This document shows, in pieces, positions 2,173 to 27,609 of a DNA stretch of 64,000 nucleotides; the stretch's first letter is position 1, and each line of letters begins with the position of its first letter. Source of the stretch: Alphaproteobacteria bacterium (lineage in GTDB: Bacteria > Pseudomonadota > Alphaproteobacteria > RF32 > CAG-239); contig JAZRAL010000009.1 in the NCBI GenBank assembly GCA_045634545.1, forward strand, positions 6,470 through 70,469, written 5' to 3'. The notes under the pieces were generated by a model. That model worked only from the letters and a program-made list of their open reading frames with translations, did not search any database and was not told the DNA's origin. A program made the position numbers and the translations under genes.

Positions 2173-3237
2173 ATGCGAAACTACATAATAAAAAGATTAT
2201 TGCTAATCCCCTTTACACTATTTGGAATATTGCTAATAAATTTTGCAATTGTACAACTAGCCCCAGGTGGCCCAGTTGAGTATATGCTTGCTCAATACAA
2301 AGGCATACAAACTTCTGCAACTGGAAATATCAATTCCGGAGTTCCAAACCTCAACGAACAAAAATACCAAGGCTCCAAAGGAGTGCCAGAAGATTTAGTA
2401 AAAGAACTAGAAAAACAATTTGGTTTTGATAAACCTGTACATATCCGCTTTATCAAAATGCTAAAAGATTATGCAACCTTTGATTTTGGAAAAAGCTACT
2501 ACAAAGACAAAACCGTAATACAGCTAATCAAAGAGCGTTTACCTATTTCAATTTCATTAGGTTTATGGTCAACCATTTTAATATATTTAATAGCAATCCC
2601 ACTTGGCATAAAAAAAGCTCGTCTAGATGGCGAACAATTTGATGTAATAAGCTCATTTATTATATTTATAGGCTCTGCTATTCCGGTCTTTTTATTCGCT
2701 GTGTTACTTATTGTTTTATTTGCTGGAGGAACATATTTTAACCTCTTCCCACTTCGTGGATTAACTTCAGATGGCTGGGAAAACTTTACCCTAATACACA
2801 AAATCCTAGATTATTTCTGGCATATAGCCCTACCAACAATCTGTATAGTAATCGGAGGAGTTGCCTCACTTACAATGCTAACCAAAAATTCTTTCATAGA
2901 TGAGCTTAGCAAACAATATGTTTTAACAGCCAAAGCCAAAGGCTTAAAAGATAAACAAATCCTTTACCACCACGTTTTTAGAAACGCTATGATGATAATA
3001 ATCGCAGGACTTCCTGCATTATTAATCAAAATCCTATTTACTGGCTCACTATTAATAGAAATAATCTTTAGCCTAAATGGTATGGGATTACTTGGATATG
3101 AAGCCATAATGACCAGAGATTACCCTGTAATTTTTGGCACGCTTTACATTTTTGCACTACTTGGTTTGGTGTTAAAACTAATAAGCGACCTAACATATTC
3201 ACTAGTAGATCCACGTATAAACTTTGATAAAATATAA
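2173..3237 (+). CDS. ABC transporter permease (OppB/DppB/YejB-like)
   Basis: 354 aa, multi-TM, typical BPD_transp_1 permease. N-terminus MRNYIIKRLLLIPFTLFGILLINFAIVQLAPGGP matches the Opp/Dpp/YejB family. Confidence 0.8.
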   Translation: MRNYIIKRLLLIPFTLFGILLINFAIVQLAPGGPVEYMLAQYKGIQTSATGNINSGVPNLNEQKYQGSKGVPEDLVKELEKQFGFDKPVHIRFIKMLKDYATFDFGKSYYKDKTVIQLIKERLPISISLGLWSTILIYLIAIPLGIKKARLDGEQFDVISSFIIFIGSAIPVFLFAVLLIVLFAGGTYFNLFPLRGLTSDGWENFTLIHKILDYFWHIALPTICIVIGGVASLTMLTKNSFIDELSKQYVLTAKAKGLKDKQILYHHVFRNAMMIIIAGLPALLIKILFTGSLLIEIIFSLNGMGLLGYEAIMTRDYPVIFGTLYIFALLGLVLKLISDLTYSLVDPRINFDKI

Positions 3238-3275
3238 AAAAAGCGGTAGTTTTACCTACCGCTTAAAATTTAATC
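3236..3275 (-). terminator. Rho-independent terminator: hairpin GCGGTAG-N6-CTACCGC followed by a T-run on the minus strand
   Basis: aaaaaaagcggtagttttacctaccgcttaaaattt. The minus strand reads hairpin plus TTTTTTT, directly after the ankyrin gene ending at 3284. It can also act weakly for yejB on the plus strand. Confidence 0.6.
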
Positions 3276-3283
3276 ATAAATTC

Positions 3284-4045
3284 TTATCTATCTAACTCAT
3301 TAAAACCAATCTTTTCACTTGTTTTTATATTTCTTTTCTTAACTGCATTAATTATCACTTTTCTTATTTTTACATCATCATTTGCATATAATATTGCCGA
3401 CTTTCCCCACCTATCTCTAGCATTAACATTTGCTCCATTTTGAATTAATAACCTTATAATATCCCTATAACCTCTGCGTGAAGCCTCCATCAAAACTGTT
3501 ACCCCATCTTTATCTCTAGCATTAACATTTGCTCCATTTTGAATTAATATTTCTACAATCTCTTTATGTCCATTCATTGCAGCTATAAAAATTGGCGTAT
3601 ATCTATAGTTATCCTTTGCATTAACATTAGCCCCTTTTTGAATTAATAACTCAACAACTTCCTTCAGACCTTTTTTTGACGCATCCATTAAAGTTGTTCT
3701 CCCCCACCAACCTTTGGCTTTAAGATATGCGCCCATATCAATCAATTCTTTAATTTCATTAATATCCGGATTTTCATCATCACAAATCAAACTTATTTTT
3801 TCGCCAATTTCTTTAGCTTTTTCTTCATCAAAAATTTCTTTTGCTCCATTTTTCTCAAGCAATTCACATATTCGATTAGCTTCTTTTGATTTTGCATACA
3901 AAAGAACCGAATTTGCCCCACACATAATATTAACATTCACCCCTAACTTAACAAGCATATCAATCTTAGCTAGCTTTAAATACTCCGCCATTTCTTTATC
4001 TTTGATTATATCGATTAATTGCTTTTCTAAGATATTCTCGCTCAT
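3284..4045 (-). CDS. Ankyrin-repeat protein (paralog 1)
   Basis: 253 aa. Multiple ANK repeats (e.g. GRTTLMDASKKGLKEVVELLIQKGANVNAKD, repeated about 4 times). N-terminus MSENILEKQLIDIIKDKEMAEYLKLAKIDMLVKLGVNVN is shared with four other ORFs in the window. Confidence 0.85.
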   Translation of the reverse strand: MSENILEKQLIDIIKDKEMAEYLKLAKIDMLVKLGVNVNIMCGANSVLLYAKSKEANRICELLEKNGAKEIFDEEKAKEIGEKISLICDDENPDINEIKELIDMGAYLKAKGWWGRTTLMDASKKGLKEVVELLIQKGANVNAKDNYRYTPIFIAAMNGHKEIVEILIQNGANVNARDKDGVTVLMEASRRGYRDIIRLLIQNGANVNARDRWGKSAILYANDDVKIRKVIINAVKKRNIKTSEKIGFNELDR

Positions 4046-4116
4046 TTTTGCCCCTTTTATCTCAAAACATAGCCTATTTTATCACAAAATCACCCACTTT
4101 GCAACAAATATCTCCT
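4046..4116 (-). promoter_or_regulatory. Conserved leader/5' UTR of the ankyrin paralog family
   Basis: ttttgcccc..ctcaaaacatagcctattttatcacaaaatcacccactttgcaacaaatatctcc recurs almost identically at 4947-5020 and, shortened, at 20452-20510. Each copy lies directly upstream of an ankyrin start codon. Confidence 0.55.
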
Positions 4117-4147
4117 CAAACGTCATCCTTGATTACATTCCTAACCT

Positions 4148-4186
4148 ATCATCCCTCGATTGCGTCTAGCAATCGTCAAGGGGGAT
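4148..4186. repeat. 38-bp palindromic repeat (copy A): tcatCCCTCGATTGCgtctaGCAATCGTCAAGGGgga
   Basis: Imperfect inverted repeat with arms CCCTCGATTGC and GCAATCGTCAAGGG. Near-identical copies lie at 17308-17345 and 20530-20567, with a degenerate copy at 5021-5045. About 100 bp upstream of the ankyrin 1 start codon. Confidence 0.6.
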
Positions 4187-4190
4187 CATT

Positions 4191-4946
4191 CTAGTCTCCC
4201 ATTCCAAAACCTTTTTTAATTTTATAAAGAAAACTATTCTTATTTCTAGCATCCTCTAACATTTTCTTTACTTTATCATTTTCTACCAAATCAAGAGCTG
4301 TTTTTCCTCTATTATCCTTAGCCTCAATGTCCGCCCCTTTTTCTAATAACAGTTCTACAACTTCACTATGACCTCTACGAGAAGCCCACATAAGCGAAGT
4401 CTGTCCATCTTCATCCTTAGCCTCAATATCCGCCCCTTTTTCTAATAACAATTTTACAGCTTCACTACACCCTCTGTAAGAAGCCCATATAAGCGAAGTA
4501 TCTCCATCTACATTTTTAGCCTCAATATCCGCCCCTTTTTCTAATAATACCTTAACTACATCACTATGACCATTTGATGAAGCCCATATAAGCGAAGTAT
4601 ATCCATTATTATCTTTAGCTTCAATATCCGCCCCTTTATTTATTAACTCTTTTACTTTTTCAAAATTTATTTCTTTCTGACCACATTCTTTAATCAACTC
4701 TTGCCCTAATTCTTCTGCCTTTTCTTCATCAATAAAATCTCTAGCCTTGTTGGCTTTTAGCATTTTTGCAATTTTAATTTCATTTAATTCATTTGCGAGC
4801 TTTAAGGCAGACTTTGCGCCATACAAAGCATTTACATCAACTCCAAGTTTAATTAGCATATCAAGTTTTGCAAGTTTAATATGCTCTGCCATATCCTCAT
4901 CTTTAATAATCTCAAATAACTGCTTTTCTAAGATATTTTCACTCAT
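4191..4946 (-). CDS. Ankyrin-repeat protein (paralog 2)
   Basis: 251 aa with the conserved N-terminal module MSENILEKQLFEIIKDEDMAEHIKLAKLDML. ANK repeats present (GYTSLIWASSNGHSDVVKVLLEKGADIEAK x4). C-terminal tail ends in KKGFGMGD. Confidence 0.85.
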   Translation of the reverse strand: MSENILEKQLFEIIKDEDMAEHIKLAKLDMLIKLGVDVNALYGAKSALKLANELNEIKIAKMLKANKARDFIDEEKAEELGQELIKECGQKEINFEKVKELINKGADIEAKDNNGYTSLIWASSNGHSDVVKVLLEKGADIEAKNVDGDTSLIWASYRGCSEAVKLLLEKGADIEAKDEDGQTSLMWASRRGHSEVVELLLEKGADIEAKDNRGKTALDLVENDKVKKMLEDARNKNSFLYKIKKGFGMGD

Positions 4947-6729: not shown

Positions 6730-7884
6730 ATGAAAAACAGCAAATATAGCACATTTATTTACGTTATATTTGCTGTTTTTATTTTTGCCTCTGCTATATA
6801 CACTCTATTTTTCTACAAAACAGATTTCTTAAAAATTTTTGTAGTATACTACAAACCTGCTCCACTTATAAAAACAGAAATATTTGAACCTATTCAAGGT
6901 GGTCGAGCAATATCTAACACCCCGTCAAGGGCTGGAACATTTACAAACGAAGAAATCACTTGGCTAAAAAATAATATGATAGGTGATGACCAAAAAGATA
7001 ACATATCTCACCTAAATCGCTATTTTGCAGAAATAACCGCCCTTTATTGGATATATAAAAACACATCATCACCATATGTTGGAATGTTCCAGTATAGACG
7101 TTTTTTAAGCCTAAACAACAATGCAAAATATCCAATAAAAGAATTTCCATCTATGCGCTTTAGACATTTAGGGATAAACCACCTGAAAGGATTCTCCAAA
7201 GAATTCCTTCGAGATTTAGAGTTAGAAAAAAAATTCATTCTCCCATGGTTTGCAACACACGATATTTTGGTTTCAGAACCAATAAAACTAAACACCTATG
7301 AGCAATACCAAAAAGAGCACATCATATCAGACCTAGATAAAGCTCTAGAAATAATAAAACAAAAATACCCCGAAATGCACTCTTTTGCCATAGAAGAATT
7401 AAATAGTGATAGAGGCTTCTACCCAACAAATATGTTCATAACCAGAAGAGAAATCCTAAACAATTATGGTAATTGGCTTTTTAGCATTCTACTTCCACTG
7501 TATGAAGACATAAAAGAAGATTTAGAAACAAGAGACACTGAACAAAAATTAGCATTAGCTTATTTATCTGAAAGATTGTTTACTATATATTTTCGCTATC
7601 AACAAAAATTTAACGGTTTGCGCATAAAAGAATTTCCATTTGCACTTGCTTCAAACTTCTTTGAACCATCTCCAAACTCAGAAATAATCAACCTAAAAAC
7701 CTCAAATTGGCAAGATATTTTTGTAAAACAAGAAAATGATAGAATTTGTGGCTATAACAATCCAGACTTCTTCTGTGGCAAATTCAAAATATTACCGCCA
7801 AACAGATTACAAGTAAAATGGGATAACCACAAAACCACATACTTTAAACACACCAATCAAAACAACTTCGTTCTTGAAAAATAG
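6730..7884 (+). CDS. DUF4422-domain protein (putative polysaccharide-biosynthesis glycosyltransferase-like) with an N-terminal TM anchor
   Basis: IFVVYYKPAPL..IFEPIQGGRAISN..GDDQKDNISHLNRYFAEITALYWIYKN..YVGMFQYRRFL matches the DUF4422 consensus as I remember it (HK..PIQvGa..GD.tGDNIS..N..y.ElTa.YW.WKN..y.Gl.HYRR). Confidence 0.6.
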   Translation: MKNSKYSTFIYVIFAVFIFASAIYTLFFYKTDFLKIFVVYYKPAPLIKTEIFEPIQGGRAISNTPSRAGTFTNEEITWLKNNMIGDDQKDNISHLNRYFAEITALYWIYKNTSSPYVGMFQYRRFLSLNNNAKYPIKEFPSMRFRHLGINHLKGFSKEFLRDLELEKKFILPWFATHDILVSEPIKLNTYEQYQKEHIISDLDKALEIIKQKYPEMHSFAIEELNSDRGFYPTNMFITRREILNNYGNWLFSILLPLYEDIKEDLETRDTEQKLALAYLSERLFTIYFRYQQKFNGLRIKEFPFALASNFFEPSPNSEIINLKTSNWQDIFVKQENDRICGYNNPDFFCGKFKILPPNRLQVKWDNHKTTYFKHTNQNNFVLEK

Positions 7885-7984
7885 CTTAAAAATACTATTT
7901 ATTCCCCATAAATTAACACAACTTAAAGTTTTTTTCTTTATAAAATAACCAATATACTTAATTTTAATTAATTGGAAAAAACAA

Positions 7985-9934
7985 ATGCACTCAATACATC
8001 CTCTAATTATTGATTTAACCATGATTACAATTTATGCTGGTTTAACAACATTATTGTGCAAAAAACTAAAGCAACCAATAATTTTAGGATATATCCTAGC
8101 AGGAATACTTGTAGGCCCTCACTTTAACTTACTCCCAACTGTAACAGATAAAGAAGACCTAAACCTATGGGCAGATATTGGCGTTATATTCCTTCTCTTT
8201 GGTCTAGGCCTAGAATTTAGTTTCAAAAAAATGGTAAACGTTGGTAAATCAGCTATGATTACCGCCACTGCAAACATCTTATTTATGCTCTTCGTAGGAT
8301 ATAACACAGGTTTATTACTCGGCTGGTCAACCATGGATAGCTTCTTTTTAGGCTCTATGATATCAATGTCATCAACCACTATTATTATTAAAGCCTTTAA
8401 CGACCTAAATATTAGAAAACAAAAATTCGTAGACCTAGTCTTTGGCGTGCTTATTATTGAAGACTTAGTTGGTATTTTAATGCTCGTATTACTACCAACA
8501 ATTGCTATGGGTAAAAATATTAATGGTTTAGAATTAGCCCTAAGCACCTCAAAATTAATTTTCTTCCTAATTATTTGTTTTGTAATTGGAATTTATCTCG
8601 TTCCAACATATCTACAAAAAATCCATAAATTCCTAAGTGATGAAATGCTTATGTTAATAACCATAGGTATGTGTTTTGGCATGGTATGGCTTGCAACATC
8701 ATCAGGTTTTTCTTCAGCATTAGGTGCTTTTATTATGGGATCAATTTTATCTGAAACACCTCTTATAGAACGAATAGAAAAAAACCTCCAACCACTAAAA
8801 GACTTCTTCGGTGCTGTTTTCTTCGTTTCAGTTGGTATGATGGTAGACCCATCTATGTTTATAACCTATGCTAAACCTATTTTAGTTATAACACTTATCG
8901 TAATCATTGGAAAAGTATTATTCTCATGCTTTGGGTTCGTTGCCTCTGGACAACCATTAAAAACCTCTGTATATGGCGGTTTTTCTCTTGCACAAGTAGG
9001 TGAGTTTGCATTCATTATTGCATCTCTTGGTATGTCTTTAGGGGTGTTAAGCAACAAAGTTTATCCTATTATCGTTGCTGTATCTGTAATCACAACATTC
9101 TTAACCCCATTAATGATAAAATCCGCAGAACCCGCATATAAAAAACTTAAAAAAATTCTTCCAGAACGTTGGCTAAATTATATAGAAAAATATTCATCAA
9201 CACCAACCCTTACTTCTAGCGAAGAGCGTTTGTGGAGCGCTTTGTTTAAAAACTACTTTATACGTCTTTTTTTATTCTCATTCATTTTATATAGCATAAT
9301 TGCGCTAGCTACATTTGTTAGACCGTATATTAGAGAGCTCATACCATATCGCATCCCTGCAAACCTAGCAATAACCATGTGCACATTCTTATTAATGTCA
9401 CCATTCCTAAAAGCTCTAATTGGTTGGAATATCATTACAACAAAATTCCTAAAAGATAGACTATCATGGATATTTGCTAAAAAACAAGCCGAAGAAATTG
9501 AACTTGTAGCACAGTGCGCTCAAGAAGAAGAAACTCATTCACTAACAGAAACTCTTCACCTAGAAAATATCTGTAATACTCTTGACGAAAAAACCATTCG
9601 CTTGCGTAACTTCTTCTCTGGCAAAACTCAAGTATCAAAAATCTACTACAAATTATGGATGGCAAAAAAAGCTAATCGCTTACCATTAATTATCTTAACA
9701 AGTTTTAGAATTCTTGTTTGCTCATTCTTTATTGTAACTGTAGTACATAAATTCTTGACTGAAAACCCAAGAGTTACATTAGTATTATTACTAGCAACAA
9801 TCTTTTTTGTATCTCGTTCAAGATGGTTACTAGACCAATATGTAAAAATAGAAGCTCAATTCCTACAAAACCTCAAAGGTTCTAAAAAAGACGAAACCAA
9901 AGAAGATACAAAAGAAGAAGCTATTAAAAACTAA
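7985..9934 (+). CDS. Monovalent cation:proton antiporter (CPA2/Na+-H+ exchanger family) with an extended C-terminal membrane region
   Basis: 649 aa, polytopic. N-terminus LKQPIILGYILAGILVGPHFNLLP is typical of Na_H_exchanger/KefB-like antiporters. Confidence 0.8.
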   Translation: MHSIHPLIIDLTMITIYAGLTTLLCKKLKQPIILGYILAGILVGPHFNLLPTVTDKEDLNLWADIGVIFLLFGLGLEFSFKKMVNVGKSAMITATANILFMLFVGYNTGLLLGWSTMDSFFLGSMISMSSTTIIIKAFNDLNIRKQKFVDLVFGVLIIEDLVGILMLVLLPTIAMGKNINGLELALSTSKLIFFLIICFVIGIYLVPTYLQKIHKFLSDEMLMLITIGMCFGMVWLATSSGFSSALGAFIMGSILSETPLIERIEKNLQPLKDFFGAVFFVSVGMMVDPSMFITYAKPILVITLIVIIGKVLFSCFGFVASGQPLKTSVYGGFSLAQVGEFAFIIASLGMSLGVLSNKVYPIIVAVSVITTFLTPLMIKSAEPAYKKLKKILPERWLNYIEKYSSTPTLTSSEERLWSALFKNYFIRLFLFSFILYSIIALATFVRPYIRELIPYRIPANLAITMCTFLLMSPFLKALIGWNIITTKFLKDRLSWIFAKKQAEEIELVAQCAQEEETHSLTETLHLENICNTLDEKTIRLRNFFSGKTQVSKIYYKLWMAKKANRLPLIILTSFRILVCSFFIVTVVHKFLTENPRVTLVLLLATIFFVSRSRWLLDQYVKIEAQFLQNLKGSKKDETKEDTKEEAIKN

Positions 9935-10686
9935 TCATCCCAAACAAACGGGTAAATCTCTTCAAAACCACTATTATGGGTAGCACCTTCTACCACATAA
10001 ACCAAACTATTATCTTTAACAAAATCATACACTAGCGAAGGTGTAATGATTTTATCATTTTCAGCCACATAATGCATCTGTGGTATTTTCATATATTCAT
10101 CTCTATAATCAGCCAAATTCAAAGATTGATTTAGCAATCTAATCTTATGATATTTGCTCCATGCAACATGATCCAAATTTCCACCAATGGTAATTAGTTT
10201 TTTTACATTTAACCCTGTTCTTGCTACACTAACTAATCCAGCTACCTGCGCCCCACCAGAAAAACCAACCAACACAACCTCATTATCATCAGCAATTTCT
10301 TTTATTGCTTCATATGTAGCTCCAATAACTTCCACCGCAAAACGAGCATCAGTCCAATGCCTTTGAGAACACATTTCATCTTTTAAAAATTGACAAGGTC
10401 TTGCAAGATAAATCACATTAGAATTTTTATCACCAAATGCTATTTTTCTAAAAAAACCATTCCTTGGAGTAGGATTATCTGTTGGCATACCATACGCATC
10501 AAAAGAAGCCCCATCCCCCTCTATATAAATCTTAAATTTATCATTGGAGTTTGTAATTTTTTGCCAGCTTGCAAGTTTAAAAGTATTTGTTTTAATTTCT
10601 TTATAAACAAAATCATTTGGGATGACAACACTGTTGCACCCAGATAAAATAAAGCATAAAGCAAAAACAAATACCCTAAAAAACAT
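9931..10686 (-). CDS. Lipoprotein with an alpha/beta-hydrolase fold (putative esterase/lipase)
   Basis: Lipobox ILSGC at the N-terminus. GFSGGAQ is a G-x-S-x-G nucleophile elbow. 251 aa. Confidence 0.55.
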   Translation of the reverse strand: MFFRVFVFALCFILSGCNSVVIPNDFVYKEIKTNTFKLASWQKITNSNDKFKIYIEGDGASFDAYGMPTDNPTPRNGFFRKIAFGDKNSNVIYLARPCQFLKDEMCSQRHWTDARFAVEVIGATYEAIKEIADDNEVVLVGFSGGAQVAGLVSVARTGLNVKKLITIGGNLDHVAWSKYHKIRLLNQSLNLADYRDEYMKIPQMHYVAENDKIITPSLVYDFVKDNSLVYVVEGATHNSGFEEIYPFVWDD

Positions 10687-10729
10687 CTAAAAAAAGCCCC
10701 ACCTTTTAAGCAGGGCTAAATCCTAAAAA

Positions 10730-11038
10730 TTAATTAGCTACAGCGCCTAAATTCTTCAAATTTTGAATAATTGTTTGAGCTGTAGATTGAGATTCCTGAC
10801 TAATACCAGCAGATTCTAATGCTAATTTTTTCAAACAAACACTAACCAATTCATCAGAAGTAGCGCTAATAGATTGTGTAAACAATGTACCTGCTTGAAA
10901 TCTAGAATTTGCTTCACTTATCAAACATGCACGCATTTTTGTTTTTGCAGAAGCATTTGAATCAACTGTTGTATATTGAGATAAATCAGCACAACCACTT
11001 AACAACAAAAAAGCACAAAACAAAGCTTTTTTCATCAT
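10730..11038 (-). CDS. Small lipoprotein, hypothetical
   Basis: The start is probably MMKKALFCAFLLLSGC (lipobox LLSGC), with an RBS taggaga upstream. The longer ORF to 11107 lacks an RBS. Confidence 0.5.
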   Translation of the reverse strand: MMKKALFCAFLLLSGCADLSQYTTVDSNASAKTKMRACLISEANSRFQAGTLFTQSISATSDELVSVCLKKLALESAGISQESQSTAQTIIQNLKNLGAVAN

Positions 11039-11138
11039 ATTTCTCCTAAAAATTTCAACTAATATACACCTATTCCAAAAACAACGAACTGTCAAATTAT
11101 TTAACAAAAAAGCCCCCTTTAAAAGGAGGCTAATTCAG

Positions 11139-11729
11139 TTACCGCTTCAAAATCACATTGGCTCTATAAAATTCATCTATTACATCTTTTTTATAATGAT
11201 GAACCTCGAGAACACCATCAACTTCAGCCCAAAACCAAATCTTAGGCAGAGGAGTATCGCCAATATCAGTTCGCATTTTAGATACAATGTCCCATTTTTT
11301 TCTCAAAACTTTGACATCATTTTTATCAAGAAAACTACCGCAATACTTGTTTTTAAAAGCAATAGCATCTTTAACATCACAACAACTATTTCCTGCTATC
11401 ATACTATGAATAACAAGTGTCGGACTAATTCTATAACCAATTACTCGTCCACAAGATTTGTCATATGTTTCTTTTTCGACACAATTTTCATATACATAGC
11501 GAGGTTTTACATAATCATTCACCATCTTTGGTAAATTTCCTTTCCATACCGGCTCATCACCTAACCCAGAAAAATCACCAAACTGAGGATTTACAGGAAC
11601 GACCTTGTCGTTGCTCTCATGAACACTTTTTTCAATGCCCTTCCATCTCAAATGCGCAATCAAAATTGTCACTAAACAAGCTGATACAAAAAAAATTGCA
11701 CCAACAAAAACTAAATCATAAGCATTCAT
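11139..11729 (-). CDS. Hypothetical membrane-anchored protein, cysteine-containing, 196 aa
   Basis: N-terminal TM helix (LVFVGAIFFVSACLVTILIAHL). No recognisable domain. Confidence 0.45.
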   Translation of the reverse strand: MNAYDLVFVGAIFFVSACLVTILIAHLRWKGIEKSVHESNDKVVPVNPQFGDFSGLGDEPVWKGNLPKMVNDYVKPRYVYENCVEKETYDKSCGRVIGYRISPTLVIHSMIAGNSCCDVKDAIAFKNKYCGSFLDKNDVKVLRKKWDIVSKMRTDIGDTPLPKIWFWAEVDGVLEVHHYKKDVIDEFYRANVILKR

Positions 11730-11855
11730 AATAAAAATTTTTAATTAATAATAATTTTCAAGCAAAGCCAAACATATCTTAAAAAAAATATTTTTCAAGA
11801 ATTATTTATTCTTAAAATTACTAAAGCTTTCTAAAATTATTATCAATTATACAAC

Positions 11856-13028
11856 TTATCTTTGAGGCTGAATATGCTGCATCATTGCCATATTCACGTT
11901 GTTATTTCTTTCTGTTTTTGGATGAATATTTTTTAATTCTTTGTTCAAATCAATAGCCTTGCTATTGCTATTCTCTCCTCGAATATTATCACCCACTTCT
12001 TGCACCTTGTTTTCACCTTTTTTAGTCTCTTGATTAAAGCTAAAATACTTAGTATCTTTATCTTTATTAACCATAAAATCTAATACTCTATCAGCATTTT
12101 CTCTATCTTTTGGAGTAACCAATCTATCTTGAACATCTCTAGGCAAAGTATCTGCTTCTGCCAACATATATATTAATTGTTGAGCATCAACTTTTTCATC
12201 TCTAAAACCGAATTGTTCAGCAAGCTCTTTATCTGCAGTAAAAGCTCTAACAATCAATGCATTTGCATTCTCTCCGTATTTTTGATTAATTTTATCATAC
12301 ATTTCCATTGATTGTTCAAGACCAATAGATAGTCTTGCCCCACCTTCTGGCATTTCGCCTGCCATAGATAACTCTGGATATCTTTCTTGCATAACCCCCA
12401 TAGAAGACACTTGGTTTCTATATTCTTCATATCGACCATCTTGTCTTGCATCATTAAAAAGTTGCTCCTGCGCTTCTCTAGAAATTTCTGGGCCATATGC
12501 TAAAGCCATTGTTATATTTTCAGGTGTCATTTTGTCATCAGATAAACCTAAAGCTCTTCCAAGTTGTTTATCACCAGAAGTAGCTAAATATTCTAAGAAA
12601 TCTCCATAAACATTACCTTGTTGAGCATCATTACTAGCTCCATATCTTTGACTAATTCTATCATGTATCCCTTCTTGTTGAGTTAAACATTCAACAACAG
12701 CCCTTTGAGCACATTCATTTAATGGTACATTACCCTCTAATCTATCACTAACATCATTAAAAGCTTGCGCATCTTCACGCATACTCTCTGCAACATCTTC
12801 TCTTGAGCTATTTTCATTACTAGACGCCACATTCTCTGCAATGTTTCTAACTTCTTCCCAAGTAATAGCAGAATCCTCTCTTAATGTCTCTCTCGTGTTA
12901 TCTTGAACAACTTCAATTCTATCACGATTACCATTATCATCTCTATTATTATTTTCTACAGCTTGAGCATTCATTGATGATGACGACAAAAGTACCGCTA
13001 CAGCCAAAGATTCCCAATTCTTACTCAT
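11856..13028 (-). CDS. Secreted acidic hypothetical protein, 390 aa
   Basis: Signal peptide MSKNWESLAVAVLLSSSSMNAQA. D/E/N/R-rich. No recognisable domain. Confidence 0.5.
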   Translation of the reverse strand: MSKNWESLAVAVLLSSSSMNAQAVENNNRDDNGNRDRIEVVQDNTRETLREDSAITWEEVRNIAENVASSNENSSREDVAESMREDAQAFNDVSDRLEGNVPLNECAQRAVVECLTQQEGIHDRISQRYGASNDAQQGNVYGDFLEYLATSGDKQLGRALGLSDDKMTPENITMALAYGPEISREAQEQLFNDARQDGRYEEYRNQVSSMGVMQERYPELSMAGEMPEGGARLSIGLEQSMEMYDKINQKYGENANALIVRAFTADKELAEQFGFRDEKVDAQQLIYMLAEADTLPRDVQDRLVTPKDRENADRVLDFMVNKDKDTKYFSFNQETKKGENKVQEVGDNIRGENSNSKAIDLNKELKNIHPKTERNNNVNMAMMQHIQPQR

Positions 13029-13090
13029 AACAACCTCAATTCATATTATTATATGAAAAATTATACCCTAAAAAATACTTTTTGTAAACA

Positions 13091-15934
13091 TTAAAATAAC
13101 CATCTAAATCCGCCAGTAACAAGCACACCATCACGACCACCATCTTCAATCATGCTCTGACCATAAACCATAATTTGGTTATTAATATGCCCTTGAATAC
13201 CTAAACCATATTGCTCATAAGGTTTAACATACATACTAGGAAGCTTAACCCCATCAACAGCTGTCTGCCCTCTTTCACCAATATCCCAAACTTTACTTGC
13301 CTCAAAATATGGTTTCCATCCATTGCCTAAATCAAAAATAAATCTAACGCCGGGAGATATCTGAAGAGAATGTATAGCATCATTTTTAATATTTACACCC
13401 AACACATTTTTATAATCTTCAGTATTAATATAAGAATAAGCAAGCATTAACGATGGCTGAATAATAAACTTTCCACTATTAAACTCAAAATTATAACCTG
13501 TTTTATTACCAATACCCGCAAGAAATGTTGAATAATCCTCTTTACCAAAAATACTCTTACTTTCTGTTTCCAAAGCACCTACAGATAATGTTGTAGCACT
13601 AAAGAAATCCCCTCTATAAAATGACAATGTACCACCAATCAAACCACCTTTTTGATGAGCTTCAACACCATCATATTCTTGTGTTGCACCGCTATGACCA
13701 ATATAAGCAGTAAAAGCACCATCTAAACTAGCATTAATTTTTCTAACACCTGTATCATATCCAACAAGAGTACCATATGTCTTATTAGATATCTCTGCTC
13801 CATTTTTAAGAAGAATATCTTCATCAATAACATAAGGTTTTACCCAAACACTTGGTTTATTTTCTTTCATAAATGAAGGTAAAGGCTCTCCTGCGCTCAT
13901 AGATGTTTCATAGCTACTCAAATTATAAGCAAGCAAAATTCTTTCACCCATTGGAATATTCATATAATTATCTAAATTTTGGAAAGAATAATTAAGAGTT
14001 TGGCTTAAAACTCCTGTTGCACCTGCGTTTGTACTAATACCACTACCAACAACTGCTGGATTAAATCCACTCAACCCCTTAGAACCGCTTCCTCTTAAAA
14101 ATTCAAAATATCCCTCATCTCCGTTATTATTATAAGCAATATCATAAACATACAAAGGTGTTACAATTTTTGAAGTTCCTTTATAAACAACACTATCCTT
14201 TAACCCTTTTTCAGCAAACATTATAGATGTTTTGTCTTTTACAGGTTCATTTATCCAATTAAGATTCATAACATTTAATTTTGCATCATTTTCAACAATA
14301 ATTCCATTTTCAGTCTCAAATCTATCCATTACTTCTTTTTCAAAGTCAACCTCACTCACAAAATCAACATCACCACTCAATTTAAGCGAATTAAATTTGT
14401 AAATATGAGCCTTATTATCGTTTGTACTAAGAGTTATATTGCCAAAACCAACATCAGCTTTCCTGATATCATTTAATAAATAAACGTTATTCTTATTATT
14501 ACCAAATATGTTCACCCCATATCCTGTAACACCATCAAAATTATCAGCTAAAACCAAATCACCTGAACCGCTTAAATTAAAATTAAGTATCGCTTCATTA
14601 TTATCAACCCAAAAAGCATTATCATCTTTAACACCTTTAGATATAGTATAGTTATTAGCTACAACCATATCCTTATCTTTAATAACAAAATTTAAATTAC
14701 TATCAGTCCAAACAGCCCCACCTTTAGCTTCACCTTCTTCTGATATTACATAGTTACCATAAAAACTAGCCTCAATTTCATCAATTTCTGCAATATTATA
14801 TAAAGCTCCACCAAAACCATCACCATCTTTTATTTTTACATAATTATTATAAAAATCGCCAACAATAGAACCTATACTATTCGCAAAGGTTGTTCTACCA
14901 TCCGGCTCATTAGAAATTGCACCACCTATAGCTAAATAAGAAATAGAATCAACATAATTACCAATAAAATCACCTGTTATCGTATCAATTCGCCCGCCAT
15001 TATGAATAGCTCCTCCGCTTGCAAAACTAGCACCCAAAGCATAATTACCAATAAAATCACCCTCTAAATCAGTAATCTTACCATTCCAGTTAGTCTCTAT
15101 TGCTCCTCCAATTGCTTCTGCAAAAACAGACTCTGCATAATTTGAAATAAAATTACCTTTAAGTAATTTAATATCTGAACTATTTACAACAAAAATAGCT
15201 CCACCCCAACCAACTGAATTAGTACCTAAAACATAGTTTCCAATAAAATCACCCACTATAGAGTTAGGATTACAAACAGCAACAATAATAGCACCACCAG
15301 CACCCTCACCCTTCTCAGCTATTGCGCTATTATTTATAAAATCTGCATATATATTATCAGCCACACCTCTAACAACAATAGCACCACCCCAGGCTAAATC
15401 TGTTTTGGAATTAACAACACTATTGTTAACAAACATACCTGAAATGTCGCCAACTTTATAACCATAGTTAGTAAAAGCACCTCCAAGTAAGTATTTACCA
15501 TTTGGAGAAGGGGATGATAAATCAGCCCACGTACCACTATAATCAAGAATAGGCGTGTTTTTGTTTGTCGTAACATGAGACTTTAAATCAGAATTTGTAT
15601 ATTTAACTGTAAAAGTAACATTTTGATCTAAGGGAACATTATGCTGATATACTTTTTCTATATCACCAGAACCATAATTAGTTTTACTTATTTCTAATGT
15701 ATAGTTAATTGTTTCAAAAACACCTTTTTCTTTATCATAAATTAAAAAAGGAATACTGCCATTTGAAGAACTATTAGTTTTGGTAAGAGTATAAGCTGAA
15801 GCATTGCCTAATGTTGGGACAAAATCTGATGCATTTGCTGTTCTATAACCTAGTCCAGCATAGGCGCACAAGAGCAGAAACAACATTCTAAATACACTTA
15901 TCTCCCCTCTATATCTCATATAGTTCTCTTTCAA
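13091..15934 (-). CDS. Autotransporter (type Va) outer-membrane protein with a beta-helical passenger domain
   Basis: 947 aa with an N-terminal signal region. The passenger domain carries many G-x-F-I-G-N-Y-x..GGAI(xN) repeats (pectate-lyase-like beta-helix). The C-terminal roughly 280 aa form a beta-barrel ending GGFRWLF, with aromatic residues at the C-terminus. Confidence 0.8.
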   Translation of the reverse strand: MKENYMRYRGEISVFRMLFLLLCAYAGLGYRTANASDFVPTLGNASAYTLTKTNSSSNGSIPFLIYDKEKGVFETINYTLEISKTNYGSGDIEKVYQHNVPLDQNVTFTVKYTNSDLKSHVTTNKNTPILDYSGTWADLSSPSPNGKYLLGGAFTNYGYKVGDISGMFVNNSVVNSKTDLAWGGAIVVRGVADNIYADFINNSAIAEKGEGAGGAIIVAVCNPNSIVGDFIGNYVLGTNSVGWGGAIFVVNSSDIKLLKGNFISNYAESVFAEAIGGAIETNWNGKITDLEGDFIGNYALGASFASGGAIHNGGRIDTITGDFIGNYVDSISYLAIGGAISNEPDGRTTFANSIGSIVGDFYNNYVKIKDGDGFGGALYNIAEIDEIEASFYGNYVISEEGEAKGGAVWTDSNLNFVIKDKDMVVANNYTISKGVKDDNAFWVDNNEAILNFNLSGSGDLVLADNFDGVTGYGVNIFGNNKNNVYLLNDIRKADVGFGNITLSTNDNKAHIYKFNSLKLSGDVDFVSEVDFEKEVMDRFETENGIIVENDAKLNVMNLNWINEPVKDKTSIMFAEKGLKDSVVYKGTSKIVTPLYVYDIAYNNNGDEGYFEFLRGSGSKGLSGFNPAVVGSGISTNAGATGVLSQTLNYSFQNLDNYMNIPMGERILLAYNLSSYETSMSAGEPLPSFMKENKPSVWVKPYVIDEDILLKNGAEISNKTYGTLVGYDTGVRKINASLDGAFTAYIGHSGATQEYDGVEAHQKGGLIGGTLSFYRGDFFSATTLSVGALETESKSIFGKEDYSTFLAGIGNKTGYNFEFNSGKFIIQPSLMLAYSYINTEDYKNVLGVNIKNDAIHSLQISPGVRFIFDLGNGWKPYFEASKVWDIGERGQTAVDGVKLPSMYVKPYEQYGLGIQGHINNQIMVYGQSMIEDGGRDGVLVTGGFRWLF

Positions 15935-16111
15935 ATAATATTAAAAGCATTTCAAAACAACACATTGCTTTCCGATTATAATATCATATTTATTAAAAAA
16001 TTGCAAATAAAATCGACTTCAGCAACACTCCCCCTCTCCGAAGTTATCATATTGTTTTTAATGCATATTTTCACGCGTTTTGAATCTTCTTTAATTCTCA
16101 TCAATTTTGTA

Positions 16112-16138
16112 TAAAAAAAACACCCTTTCGGGTGTCCT
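16112..16138 (-). terminator. Rho-independent terminator downstream of tRNA-Leu
   Basis: aaaaaaaacaccctttcgggtgtcc: hairpin ACACCC/GGGTGT plus a T-run on the minus strand, immediately 3' of the tRNA. Confidence 0.5.
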
Positions 16139-16146
16139 AAAAGAAA

Positions 16147-16233
16147 TGGTGCGCTAGGCCGGAATCGAACCGGCACGAGGTTGCCCTCAACAGATTTTAA
16201 GTCTGCAGCGTCTACCAGTTCCGCCACAAGCGC
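16147..16233 (-). tRNA. tRNA-Leu (anticodon UAA), type II with a long variable arm, CCA encoded
   Basis: The reverse complement is gcgcttgtggcggaactggtagacgctgcagacttaaaatctgttgagggcaaccctcgtgccggttcgattccggcctagcgcacca. It has a D-arm, an anticodon loop cTTAAaa, a long variable arm, a T-arm GGTTCGATTCC and a 3' CCA. ORF 15976-16227 overlapping it is spurious. Confidence 0.9.
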
Positions 16234-16422
16234 AAATCCATAACAGAGACTCTTATATATATAAAAAAAAATAAATGCAACATATTTCTTGTATTTTTTT
16301 TATTTTTAATTACAATTTTTCACTGTAACCGAATATGCAGCGCATATTCTTGCTTAAAAATATATGGTATATACGGCAGAAACAGCGTTTCGGTATATAC
16401 CTTTTTGAAAGGTAAAACTTAG

Positions 16423-17214
16423 ATGAACCCTATAAACTCGAAGCTCAAGCTTCCAAAAAACAAGTTAAAAGAAATCCCTTTTCGCAAACTTGTTCCAAAT
16501 ATTGTAACTATGTTAGCATTATGCTCCGGACTAACCTCAATTCGCTATTCAGTACAAGAAGATTGGGGAAAAGCCATCCTCTTTATATTCCTAGCCGGAC
16601 TATTAGATGGCTTAGATGGTCGCCTAGCACGTATGCTAAAAGCATCAACCAAATTTGGTGCCGAACTCGATTCTCTATGTGATTTTGTAAGTTTTGGTAT
16701 TGCACCAGCAATTTTAATGTTCCAATGGTGCTTATTTGATTTACCCAAAATTGGTTGGTTCTTCTGTTTACTATATTCAATGGGAATGGCAATGCGCCTC
16801 GCACGTTTTAACACAATGTTAGAAGACGATACGATTCCCCCATATTGGTCACATTATTTTACAGGTGTTCCAGCTCCTGCCGCTGCCGCAATGGCAACAA
16901 TGCCAATTTTAATTACTTTTGACTTTGCTGATGCAGAACCATTTTTGCGCACACATTTATTCTGTGCTATTTGGATGTTGATAGTTGCATATCTTGAAAC
17001 AAGTAGAATCCCGACTCTTTCATTAAAAAAAGCCAAAGTAAAAACTGAACACATGATACCATTAGCATTTTGTGTTGCTTTAATAGCCACATTTTTATTT
17101 ACACAAACATGGCTAACATTTGGAGTTTTGGTAATTTTATATGCATTATCAATTCCATTTACAGTTTATCGTTTTGCAAAAGAAAAATCCGCATACGAAA
17201 AACAAAATGCTTAA
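16423..17214 (+). CDS. pssA: CDP-diacylglycerol--serine O-phosphatidyltransferase (CDP-alcohol phosphatidyltransferase family)
   Basis: DGLDGRLARM..G..LDSLCD matches the CDP-OH phosphatidyltransferase signature D-G-x2-A-R-x8-G-x3-D-x3-D. 263 aa, multi-TM, the typical alphaproteobacterial PssA size. Confidence 0.8.
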   Translation: MNPINSKLKLPKNKLKEIPFRKLVPNIVTMLALCSGLTSIRYSVQEDWGKAILFIFLAGLLDGLDGRLARMLKASTKFGAELDSLCDFVSFGIAPAILMFQWCLFDLPKIGWFFCLLYSMGMAMRLARFNTMLEDDTIPPYWSHYFTGVPAPAAAAMATMPILITFDFADAEPFLRTHLFCAIWMLIVAYLETSRIPTLSLKKAKVKTEHMIPLAFCVALIATFLFTQTWLTFGVLVILYALSIPFTVYRFAKEKSAYEKQNA

Positions 17215-17220
17215 AAATAT

Positions 17221-17250
17221 TAAAGGGGAGAAACTTCTCCCCTTTTTTAT
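17221..17250 (+). terminator. Rho-independent terminator of pssA
   Basis: aaaGGGGAGAAacTTCTCCCCtttttt: perfect 8-bp arms plus a T6 run. Confidence 0.65.
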
Positions 17251-17307
17251 TAATCTCACAACTTAACACTTGATCGCTTTTTTACTTCTCCACACACTCC
17301 CTTAGCC

Positions 17308-26817: not shown

Positions 26818-27609
26818 TTGAAAAACACAAACAATCAGAAGATTATTATCCCTTTTTGGGGTGGTTGCCTTTACCCTTTTCAAAACATAAAAAATAATTT
26901 CATAAAATTTTTAAAATTAACGTCCTTATTCTCTTTAATAACAACCATTTTATCCTTTGTTTTAGGAAGATCTTTTGCATGCTCTATTAATTTAGATACA
27001 ATATTTTGCTCTTTTTCTCATATAAACTCCATTTCTTCTATAGTTATAACTATCGCTTGCTTATCTTTATATGTAAATAGATGGAATACAACATCTACTC
27101 AAGATATTGCAATCAAAAAGACTTTCTCAAAACCTTATTTAAAAAAAGACCTTAGAGCTCTTTTTATAATTTTTATAAATATATTAGCTTTTTCAACAAT
27201 GGGAGGAAGCATCTATTTGCTAAATCAACGAAAAGTAACTCCAAATTTTAATTTAGAACTTGGTTTATTTATACTATTTTCATTTTTAATAATTTTATCT
27301 TTAATTATTTTAGTAAACAATGTACTATTGCTACGCTTTCTCAATTCAAAGAAATTTTTAAACCTAAACAAGATATTCTGGCCAACATTTGATAATATCT
27401 ATAAATACATTTCCTGGTTTATAATCTTTTTTATATTATTTGCAGTTATTTTAAAAAATATATTTTTCAGTATATTATCATCAGGAGGAGCGATATTACA
27501 CATTATACTTGGAGAGTTTTTTATAAACTTTACTTTATACACAATAATGTCTTTTTGGATATCAAACCTACAATATCAAGAAAAATACTTATTTAAAGAA
27601 GACAAGTAA
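26818..27609 (+). CDS. Hypothetical polytopic membrane protein, 263 aa; probable TTG start
   Basis: aaaggagg RBS at 26805-26812, 5 nt upstream of the TTG. Several hydrophobic segments. No recognised family. Confidence 0.45.
   Translation: MKNTNNQKIIIPFWGGCLYPFQNIKNNFIKFLKLTSLFSLITTILSFVLGRSFACSINLDTIFCSFSHINSISSIVITIACLSLYVNRWNTTSTQDIAIKKTFSKPYLKKDLRALFIIFINILAFSTMGGSIYLLNQRKVTPNFNLELGLFILFSFLIILSLIILVNNVLLLRFLNSKKFLNLNKIFWPTFDNIYKYISWFIIFFILFAVILKNIFFSILSSGGAILHIILGEFFINFTLYTIMSFWISNLQYQEKYLFKEDK

Follow-up and report, generated by a model that had tools for sequence, protein, structure and literature searches.

A probable gene-turnover hotspot beside tRNA-Leu(UAA) in the genome of an uncultured gut alphaproteobacterium

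When genes for surface and secreted proteins border the 3' end of a tRNA gene, the question arises whether they came there together as an integrated genomic island. Such a block is present in a stretch of 64,000 nucleotides (nt) from an Alphaproteobacteria bacterium (assembly GCA_045634545.1, contig JAZRAL010000009.1, positions 6,470 to 70,469 of the forward strand; the whole stretch is called the window here), where five genes fill positions 9931 to 16146 next to a tRNA-Leu(UAA) gene. An earlier note, made from the letters of this DNA, had proposed the block as a candidate island, old or degenerate. With a probability of roughly 0.75 we consider the block to be the present content of a chromosomal gene-turnover hotspot, that is, a hotspot of horizontal gene transfer (HGT), between the antiporter gene CPA2 and the tRNA-Leu(UAA)-pssA pair, and not a discrete mobile island. 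Judged from sequence comparison, the five genes of the window genome appear to be long-resident and vertically inherited, with native composition, and to evolve faster than housekeeping genes.

The five open reading frames (ORFs), of 251, 125, 196, 390 and 947 amino acids (aa), were found where the earlier note had placed them, all co-oriented and all for envelope or secreted proteins. They are named ABH, LIPO, CYS, ACID and AT below, and W denotes the window genome. The tRNA was likewise recovered, by ARAGORN (as taa) and by Rfam, and it is the single ARAGORN tRNA in the window. The two flanking genes had been called a cation antiporter and pssA, and both calls agree with the family matches given here:

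7985-9934, plus strand: CPA2, monovalent cation:proton antiporter (Na+/H+ exchanger; PF00999, E-value 3.9e-65), left anchor of the interval; its stop and the stop of ABH overlap by 4 bp
9931-10686, minus strand: ABH, predicted lipoprotein serine hydrolase, 251 aa
10730-11038, minus strand: LIPO, predicted small lipoprotein (ORF as first read 10730-11107, 125 aa)
11139-11729, minus strand: CYS, membrane-anchored protein, 196 aa
11856-13028, minus strand: ACID, secreted acidic protein, 390 aa
13091-15934, minus strand: AT, autotransporter, ORF of 947 aa
16147-16233, minus strand: tRNA-Leu(UAA)
16423-17214, plus strand: pssA (TIGR00473, E-value 1.6e-31), right anchor together with the tRNA

The pssA protein was scanned against one genome per bacterial species, which gave 24 loci (numbered with the prefix L), all of them from metagenome-assembled genomes (MAGs) of uncultured gut Alphaproteobacteria, with sources including deer colon and other gut samples. 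Their pssA proteins were 72-99% identical to that of the window. In all 24 loci a tRNA-Leu(taa) gene with the same orientation precedes pssA by about 190 bp, and in 17 of them CPA2 stands on the far side, giving a CPA2...tRNA-Leu-pssA frame; counterparts of CPA2 at the equivalent position were seen in 25 related loci, with 74-94% aa identity. From CPA2 to the tRNA the interval measures 2.9-8.6 kb, and 3-10 genes lie in it. Gene families were counted over 18 genomes, namely W and the 17 relatives, a set that was not selected on AT, CYS or ACID. There were 48 families in the interval (26 multi-member and 22 singletons), whereas the neighbouring PFK-DUF4422, DUF4422-CPA2, Sua5-M17 and M17-DnaE intervals contained 0 genes in all genomes.

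The five genes are distributed unevenly over this set. LIPO is the most widely kept gene of the interval (11 of 18 genomes), ABH is present in nine and always adjoins CPA2 or a serine recombinase gene, and ACID, AT and CYS are present in four, two and one, respectively. Counted in the 17 relatives alone, AT occurs in one, ACID in three and CYS in none, and L010, L014, L018, L019, L020, L022 and L024 carry none of the five. Further loci (L026-L040) were fetched for containing AT, CYS or ACID, and these three genes recur there in the same interval of further lineages, with order and company shuffled. The architectures compared are:

W: ABH, LIPO, CYS, ACID, AT
L003: ABH, LIPO, S41, ACID, acyltransferase, AT
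L035: ABH, LIPO, AT, CYS
L026: ABH, LIPO, AT ... S41
L027-29: ABH, LIPO, GtrII, S41, AT
L033/34: ABH, LIPO and three genes, AT, and two genes
L008, L011: like L033 minus AT
L037: ABH, LIPO, flavodoxin-like gene, CYS, ACID

It can be seen that the interval changes gene by gene, through replacement, insertion and reordering, and that the block is never gained or lost as a unit. CYS is shared with L035 and L037 in a different order, and ACID was found in W, L003, L004, L005 and L037. The order AT-ACID-CYS recurs in an independent assembly, L040, so the block order is not a binning artefact. The comparison with relatives' tRNA-Leu loci, which the earlier note had proposed as a check, therefore gave a divided result: ABH and LIPO are conserved in place, while AT, ACID and CYS are patchy.

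The cargo of the interval in relatives includes GT92 and GtrII glycosyltransferases, an Acyl_transf_3 acyltransferase, an S41 peptidase, a GDSL lipase, an EEP phosphatase or nuclease, a histidine phosphatase, and MatE and DMT transporters. Genes of defence or addiction type occur as well (L005:9205-9678, L004:7610-8083, L012:1914-4331 and L006:7851-8422), among them a P-loop kinase resembling zeta toxins, a WYL regulator together with DUF6994 (L012) and two ribbon-helix-helix genes in tandem. Cargo of this composition is typical of hotspots and of surface variation. In addition, the contigs of 5 of the 24 relatives (L015, L016, L021, L013 and L012) stop 60-4549 bp from the 3' side of the tRNA; contig breaks of such kind are typical where DNA is strain-variable or mobile.

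Signatures of an integrated element were sought in the window. A repeat of the tRNA 3' end, which the earlier note had suggested as a possible attachment-site (att) remnant, was sought with its last 12-25 nt; these do not recur in the 64 kb with up to 6 mismatches in 25 nt, and the same search in all relatives' loci returned nothing but the tRNA itself. No direct or inverted repeats bound the block, and the repeat scans gave short AT-rich matches only. Scans of the five proteins with Pfam, NCBIfam and PHROGs revealed no recombinase, with 0 phage-family matches in PHROGs, and tblastn with the relatives' recombinase, S41 peptidase and other families left no trace in the window. The earlier observation that no integrase is visible thus stands for the whole window, and because the intergenic gaps are at most 212 bp, there is no space for a recombinase remnant.

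Composition was the other check proposed, and the deviation that an island would lead one to look for did not appear. The five genes were scored against the window's 58 genes, and z ranged between -0.9 and +0.3 for G+C content (GC), between -1.1 and +0.3 for GC at third codon positions (GC3) and between -0.5 and +1.1 for synonymous-codon likelihood, so that all five genes are within about 1.1 standard deviations (SD). The test was able to flag outliers: at 59.7-61.8 kb, two genes differ from the mean by 3-4 SD. These two genes (59684-60685 and 61046-61759, both on the minus strand) have GC of 0.42-0.45, GC3 z of about +4 and codon-use z of about -3, and one of them has a weak match to an outer-membrane protein (OMP) beta-barrel; they could have been acquired horizontally, or could encode outer-membrane proteins that are strongly expressed and have a codon bias of their own.

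The closest relative is L003 (SUUK01000002.1), with CPA2 94% identical. Against it, synonymous divergence (dS) was 0.43-0.71 for the block genes, 0.53 for CPA2 and 0.78 for the flank at 21726-23198, and the ratio of nonsynonymous to synonymous divergence (dN/dS) was 0.14-0.30 for the block, 0.06 for CPA2 and 0.09 for the same flank. From these values the block has diverged along with its flanks, under selection that is relaxed yet purifying. Across relatives, AT identity was 71, 71, 56, 56 and 50% against CPA2 identity of 94, 90, 83, 81 and 78%, and the identities of ABH and LIPO likewise fall as that of CPA2 falls. The alignment of W with L003 is collinear but for three local events: a swap between CYS and the S41 peptidase gene, an extra acyltransferase gene, which sits between ACID and AT in L003, and the 5' half of AT. 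In the first of these, the CYS slot of W (11105-11855) is replaced in L003 by 2574-4223 with the S41 peptidase gene.

The third event, and an abrupt change of identity next to the tRNA, concern the following segments:

13091-14374, minus strand: 3' part of AT, beta-barrel translocator and proximal passenger, residues ~521-947; nearest allele L003
14375-15919, minus strand: 5' part of AT, signal peptide and Pmp-like beta-helix repeats, residues 1 to ~520; recombinant segment, 82-90% nt identity to L030
16110-17307, no strand: patch of tRNA terminator, tRNA-Leu and pssA, for the most part 98-100% identical to L003

The AT gene is a recombinant chimera, with a breakpoint near residue 520 and two halves that have different nearest relatives. 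Its 3' part shows 84-98% nt identity to L003 and 70-81% to L030 (68-82% to L030 and L035 taken together), and the dS of the barrel versus L003 is 0.34. Residues ~41-520 (14375-15814) have their nearest alleles in L035 and in L030, the latter from another genomic context; here nt identity is 69-90% to L030 and 53-78% to L003, with dS of 1.1-1.3 versus L003. The L030-like stretch terminates within the signal-peptide region. Close AT homologues were found in unrelated contexts in L030 (74%) and L031 (52%).

At position 16110 the identity to L003 leaps from below 70% to 98-100% and holds at about this level to 17307, whereas the DNA around the patch is 50-87% identical. The dS of pssA versus L003 is 0.023, against 0.4-0.8 in neighbouring genes. 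On these figures the patch is read as the product of recent homologous recombination between lineages, and it is sharply bounded towards the variable regions on both sides. Its left boundary falls where the variable interval ends, directly 3' of the tRNA terminator.

Two kinds of recombinase gene were found in relatives. In L013 (1066-2613) and L017 (8085-9632, contig CASDOS010000055.1), a 515-aa tyrosine integrase (PF00589; PHROG integrase, E-value 1e-23) lies directly 3' of the same tRNA-Leu(UAA), and we therefore regard this tRNA as a genuine integration site in the clade. In L017 the integrase gene is followed by Fic and AAA-ATPase genes, a cargo that has nothing in common with the window block; in L012, the WYL and DUF6994 genes stand 3' of the tRNA. 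A second att site for the integrase element was not found within the 9.7 kb examined. At the other edge of the interval, a serine recombinase of ~206 aa (Resolvase and HTH_7 domains, catalytic YIRVSTDKQ, best PHROG match 'DNA invertase' with E-value 4e-45) adjoins CPA2 in 12 of the 17 relatives (L010:6764-7393; L002, L004, L005, L007, L009 with two copies, L014, L018, L019, L020, L022 and L024). The pairwise identities of this recombinase and of CPA2 are correlated (r = 0.94), which indicates a vertically inherited resident, and it is not present in W, L003 or L035. In ten recombinase-bearing loci no invertible segment and no conserved inverted repeats were found. One repeat pair is common to L010 and L019; it was discounted as independent evidence because the two loci are nearly identical.

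How do the possible histories of the block compare? The earlier note pictured an island that is old or degenerate; in such a history, one integrase-bearing element with the envelope genes would have inserted at the 3' end of tRNA-Leu, later lost integrase and att sites and ameliorated in composition. The block borders the tRNA on its 3' side and shares its orientation, AT, ACID and CYS are patchy, the same tRNA has a tyrosine integrase at its 3' end in the two relatives named above, with Fic and AAA-ATPase cargo, and five of 24 contigs end within 5 kb of this point; all of this would agree with an island. We nevertheless hold it to be unlikely for W, where neither att repeat nor integrase nor space for a remnant exists and composition and dS are indistinguishable from the flanks. 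ABH and LIPO are kept in place across the clade, AT identity tracks species distance, the nearest relatives differ by single-gene events and an intragenic chimera and not by a whole unit, and the cargo of the real integrase element in L017 is unlike the block. What remains of the island proposal is accessory, variable DNA next to a tRNA that serves as integration site; a single integrated island, even an old one, is not supported. The earlier note had also set out the opposite picture, in which relatives keep the same genes in place, with native composition and no att-like repeat, as conserved core envelope genes. This holds for composition, for att and for the two CPA2-proximal genes, and it does not hold for the three tRNA-proximal genes. 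An ordinary conserved core cluster that stands beside the tRNA by chance, without accessory character, would indeed show native composition, purifying divergence (dN/dS 0.14-0.30) and ABH and LIPO syntenic in many relatives, but it would hardly be reconciled with the 48 families of the 18 genomes when the four neighbouring intervals have none, with the low counts of AT, ACID and CYS among the 17 relatives, or with the relatives listed above that hold none of the five genes, and we give it very little weight.

It could also be imagined that the serine recombinase at the CPA2 edge drives inversion, phase variation or cassette exchange of surface genes, and that W has lost it. An invertase-type recombinase beside CPA2 in most of the relatives, inherited vertically with CPA2, is what makes this thinkable. 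However, W and its closest relatives L003 and L035 are without it, conserved inverted repeats around promoters or genes were not found in the ten bearing loci, no differences of orientation were seen between closely related assemblies, and intervals without the recombinase are equally variable, so such a locus is very improbable for W, though it may exist in relatives. A bolder form of the idea would make the interval a lineage-wide surface-variation cassette site once serviced by the serine recombinase, an undescribed cassette system in which ACID and CYS would be new host-interaction factors; we see a slim chance of this.

The gene-turnover hotspot itself has some points that weigh against it. 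All comparison genomes are MAGs or single contigs, one per species, which leaves strain-level rates and ancestral states open to doubt. Spurious ORFs (at least 75 aa) may be among the 22 singleton families. The recurrence of AT, CYS and ACID was ascertained with bias, as L026-L040 were chosen for those genes, and flank recombination was seen in one event. The tRNA-proximal genes may also have an ancient integrase-mediated origin whose signatures have since been erased.

What was observed directly is the anatomy of the locus, how it varies among relatives, its composition and divergence, and the chimeric AT. On the hotspot reading, single genes of the interval are replaced, inserted or reordered piecemeal, and recombination among divergent alleles exchanges the exposed half of AT. 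Homologous recombination would work through the conserved flanks, and in other lineages an integrase-bearing element at the same tRNA adds to the turnover. Beyond this, we infer flank-anchored recombination as the main exchange route and selection for surface diversity as the driver.

Chromosomal HGT hotspots have been described in detail: mobile elements are absent from many of them, integrases are encoded in fewer than half, 29% are associated with a tRNA or tmRNA gene, and the core genes at their flanks recombine more often (Oliveira, Touchon, Cury, Rocha 2017, Nat Commun 8:841, PMC5635113). The interval resembles them in the accessory diversity that is concentrated between syntenic core genes, in the presence of a tRNA, in the lack of integrase or recognisable mobile element in most genomes, in evidence, from the one event at 16110-17307, of homologous recombination in the flanking core gene and in cargo rich in envelope and defence-type functions. 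It differs in that species-level MAGs and not strains were compared, with the likeness resting on family counts and not on a formal hotspot statistic, and in that ABH and LIPO are semi-conserved inside the interval.

By the classical definition, tRNA-linked genomic or pathogenicity islands are integrase-mediated. The interval shares with them the position at the tRNA 3' side, surface and secreted cargo including an autotransporter, a patchy distribution and an integrase at the same tRNA in L013 and L017; unlike them, W is without integrase, att repeats or compositional deviation, its divergence equals that of the flanks, and the variation is piecemeal. Among five criteria of such islands the block shows one, the tRNA 3' position (the block ends at 16146 and the 3' end of the tRNA is at 16147), and fails the other four. 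Another known type is the invertase-controlled phase-variable surface locus of the Hin/Gin/Mpi type. In 12 relatives an invertase-type serine recombinase at the interval edge near surface-related genes recalls such loci, but W has no recombinase, and no invertible segment or inverted repeats were found.

The autotransporter call of the earlier note was confirmed by the TIGR01414 barrel (E-value 5.9e-16, 58.5 bits vs a cut-off of 16, residues 691-947), with a correction of the start: the likeliest is the ATG at 15919, giving 942 aa in agreement with database protein P0001. In the passenger, nine GGA[ILVF] motifs at residues 151-405, spaced by ~30 residues, alternate with eight FxxN motifs, while shuffled AT sequences contain 0.23 +/- 0.48 GGA[ILVF]. 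GGA/FxxN repeats are the signature of Pmp-type beta-helix autotransporters (PMC11166332). We class AT as an autotransporter of type Va whose beta-helix passenger is Pmp-like; by analogy with Pmp proteins (PMC2997323), it is probably an adhesin. It has more than 1000 homologues, many with the Chlamydia Pmp repeat PF02415, including some at E <= 1e-170. AT itself gave no match to PF02415 or TIGR01376 even at E <= 1, and for this reason we call it Pmp-like and not Pmp; a PDB sequence search returned nothing. Signal peptide, GGA/FxxN repeats, C-terminal barrel and a fast-evolving, recombining passenger are like those of chlamydial Pmp (PMC11166332, PMC2997323), as are the many homologues that score PF02415. 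AT differs from chlamydial Pmp in scores below the PF02415/TIGR01376 thresholds, in its alphaproteobacterial host and in being one copy in 64 kb, with no paralogue array.

In view of AT, the statement of the earlier note that the block holds only lineage-specific genes goes too far. ACID, by contrast, has just 12 cluster representatives among 1.84 billion (1.84e9) clusters. ACID has a signal peptide (...MNAQA) and an isoelectric point of 4.6, and its 23 homologues include 0 with a Pfam domain. Its structure model has an all-helical core at ~residues 100-340 with a pLDDT (predicted local distance difference test) of about 90 and gave no significant PDB or BFVD match. CYS had been described as a Cys-containing membrane-anchored protein; the membrane helix is there, N-terminal, but the invariant and nearly invariant positions of the family (47 homologues, 0 with a Pfam domain) do not include any cysteine. 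Conserved instead, besides the helix, is a domain of ~140 aa at the C-terminus, and the motifs are PRYVYE, GYRISPTLVIH and a C-terminal ILKR. The AlphaFold model of CYS has a pLDDT of 91 and no significant structural match in PDB and BFVD. Weak recurring matches, all with E > 1e-3 and thus a lead only, are to C-type-lectin-like domains; weak structural matches include surfactant protein A, Ly-49I, InvE (an invasin-family adhesin), DUF1566 and viral C-type lectin proteins. A toxin-immunity pair was considered for ACID and CYS and dropped, since relatives can have either gene alone and the two proteins gave no match to any toxin or immunity family. In its interval, L037 also encodes a 459-aa protein (7226-8605) with ~30% identity to the N-terminal 136 residues of ACID, and a 202-aa protein (2868-3476) with distant similarity (29%) to CYS. 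Their sequences suggest small paralogous families sharing N-terminal modules.

ABH had been noted as an alpha/beta-hydrolase lipoprotein. Its Pfam scores are below threshold (Abhydrolase_1, 21.0 bits vs 25.8; FSH1, 20.1 vs 21) and a PDB sequence search gave no match, yet in the family of 14 members the GFSGGAQV nucleophile elbow, one Asp, one His and the Cys of the lipobox LSGC are all invariant. The conserved residues support ABH as a putative lipoprotein serine hydrolase of the alpha/beta-hydrolase fold, in line with the earlier call; its dN/dS versus L003 is 0.18. The likeliest start of LIPO is the ATG at 11038, since every relative aligns from there, and it gives a protein of 102 aa, MMKKALFCAFLLLSGC. 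No family of Pfam, NCBIfam or PHROG was matched by LIPO. Besides the lipobox LSGC it has two more invariant Cys, and we regard it as a putative small disulfide-bonded lipoprotein.

Signals for transcription within the block are consistent with several units:

10695-10717, minus strand: intrinsic-terminator-like hairpin 3' of the LIPO gene
11111-11131, minus strand: intrinsic-terminator-like hairpin 3' of the CYS gene, probably the end of an ACID/CYS transcription unit
13060-13088, minus strand: sigma-70-like promoter ahead of ACID, TTTACA-17-TATAAT, 11/12 matches (consensus match only)
15978-16006, minus strand: sigma-70-like promoter ahead of AT, TTGCAA-17-TATTAT with upstream TG (consensus match only)
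16117-16138, minus strand: hairpin and T-run terminator of tRNA-Leu

A single operon of the five genes was considered and rejected, because terminator-like hairpins fall within the block, after CYS and LIPO, besides the one after the tRNA. Together with the promoter-like sites that precede AT and ACID, the hairpins point to some four transcription units; these signals are consensus matches only, and sigma-70-like sites are no more numerous in the region than in shuffled sequence. The 212 bp from the tRNA to AT hold just the tRNA terminator and the region of the AT promoter. In 9-18 kb, an Rfam E-value scan detected no RNA family besides tRNA-Leu.

Some other features of the window were observed. 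There are five ankyrin-repeat protein genes (17361-20451 and 3284-4946). Three of them lie in the pssA-Sua5 interval, which is a second, smaller variable spot and holds other ankyrin genes or an OMP beta-barrel gene in relatives; dN/dS versus L003 is 0.36-0.53. The eukaryote-like ankyrin repeats hint at interaction with a eukaryotic host or protist. The ORF at 26818-27609 on the plus strand has GC of 0.24 and no Pfam match, and is 41-46% identical to its syntenic counterparts vs 64-95% for its neighbours; by these identities it appears to be another fast-evolving gene.

Taken as a gene-turnover hotspot, the locus is a case of ordinary, well-known genome plasticity and leaves current understanding unchallenged. 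It documents a tRNA-adjacent hotspot of this kind in a poorly known clade of uncultured gut Alphaproteobacteria, and it means that tRNA adjacency together with surface cargo is insufficient to call an integrated island. The chimeric AT and the two orphan proteins ACID and CYS are the likeliest surface proteins to differ between lineages, and they are candidates for studies of host or phage interaction and for strain typing.

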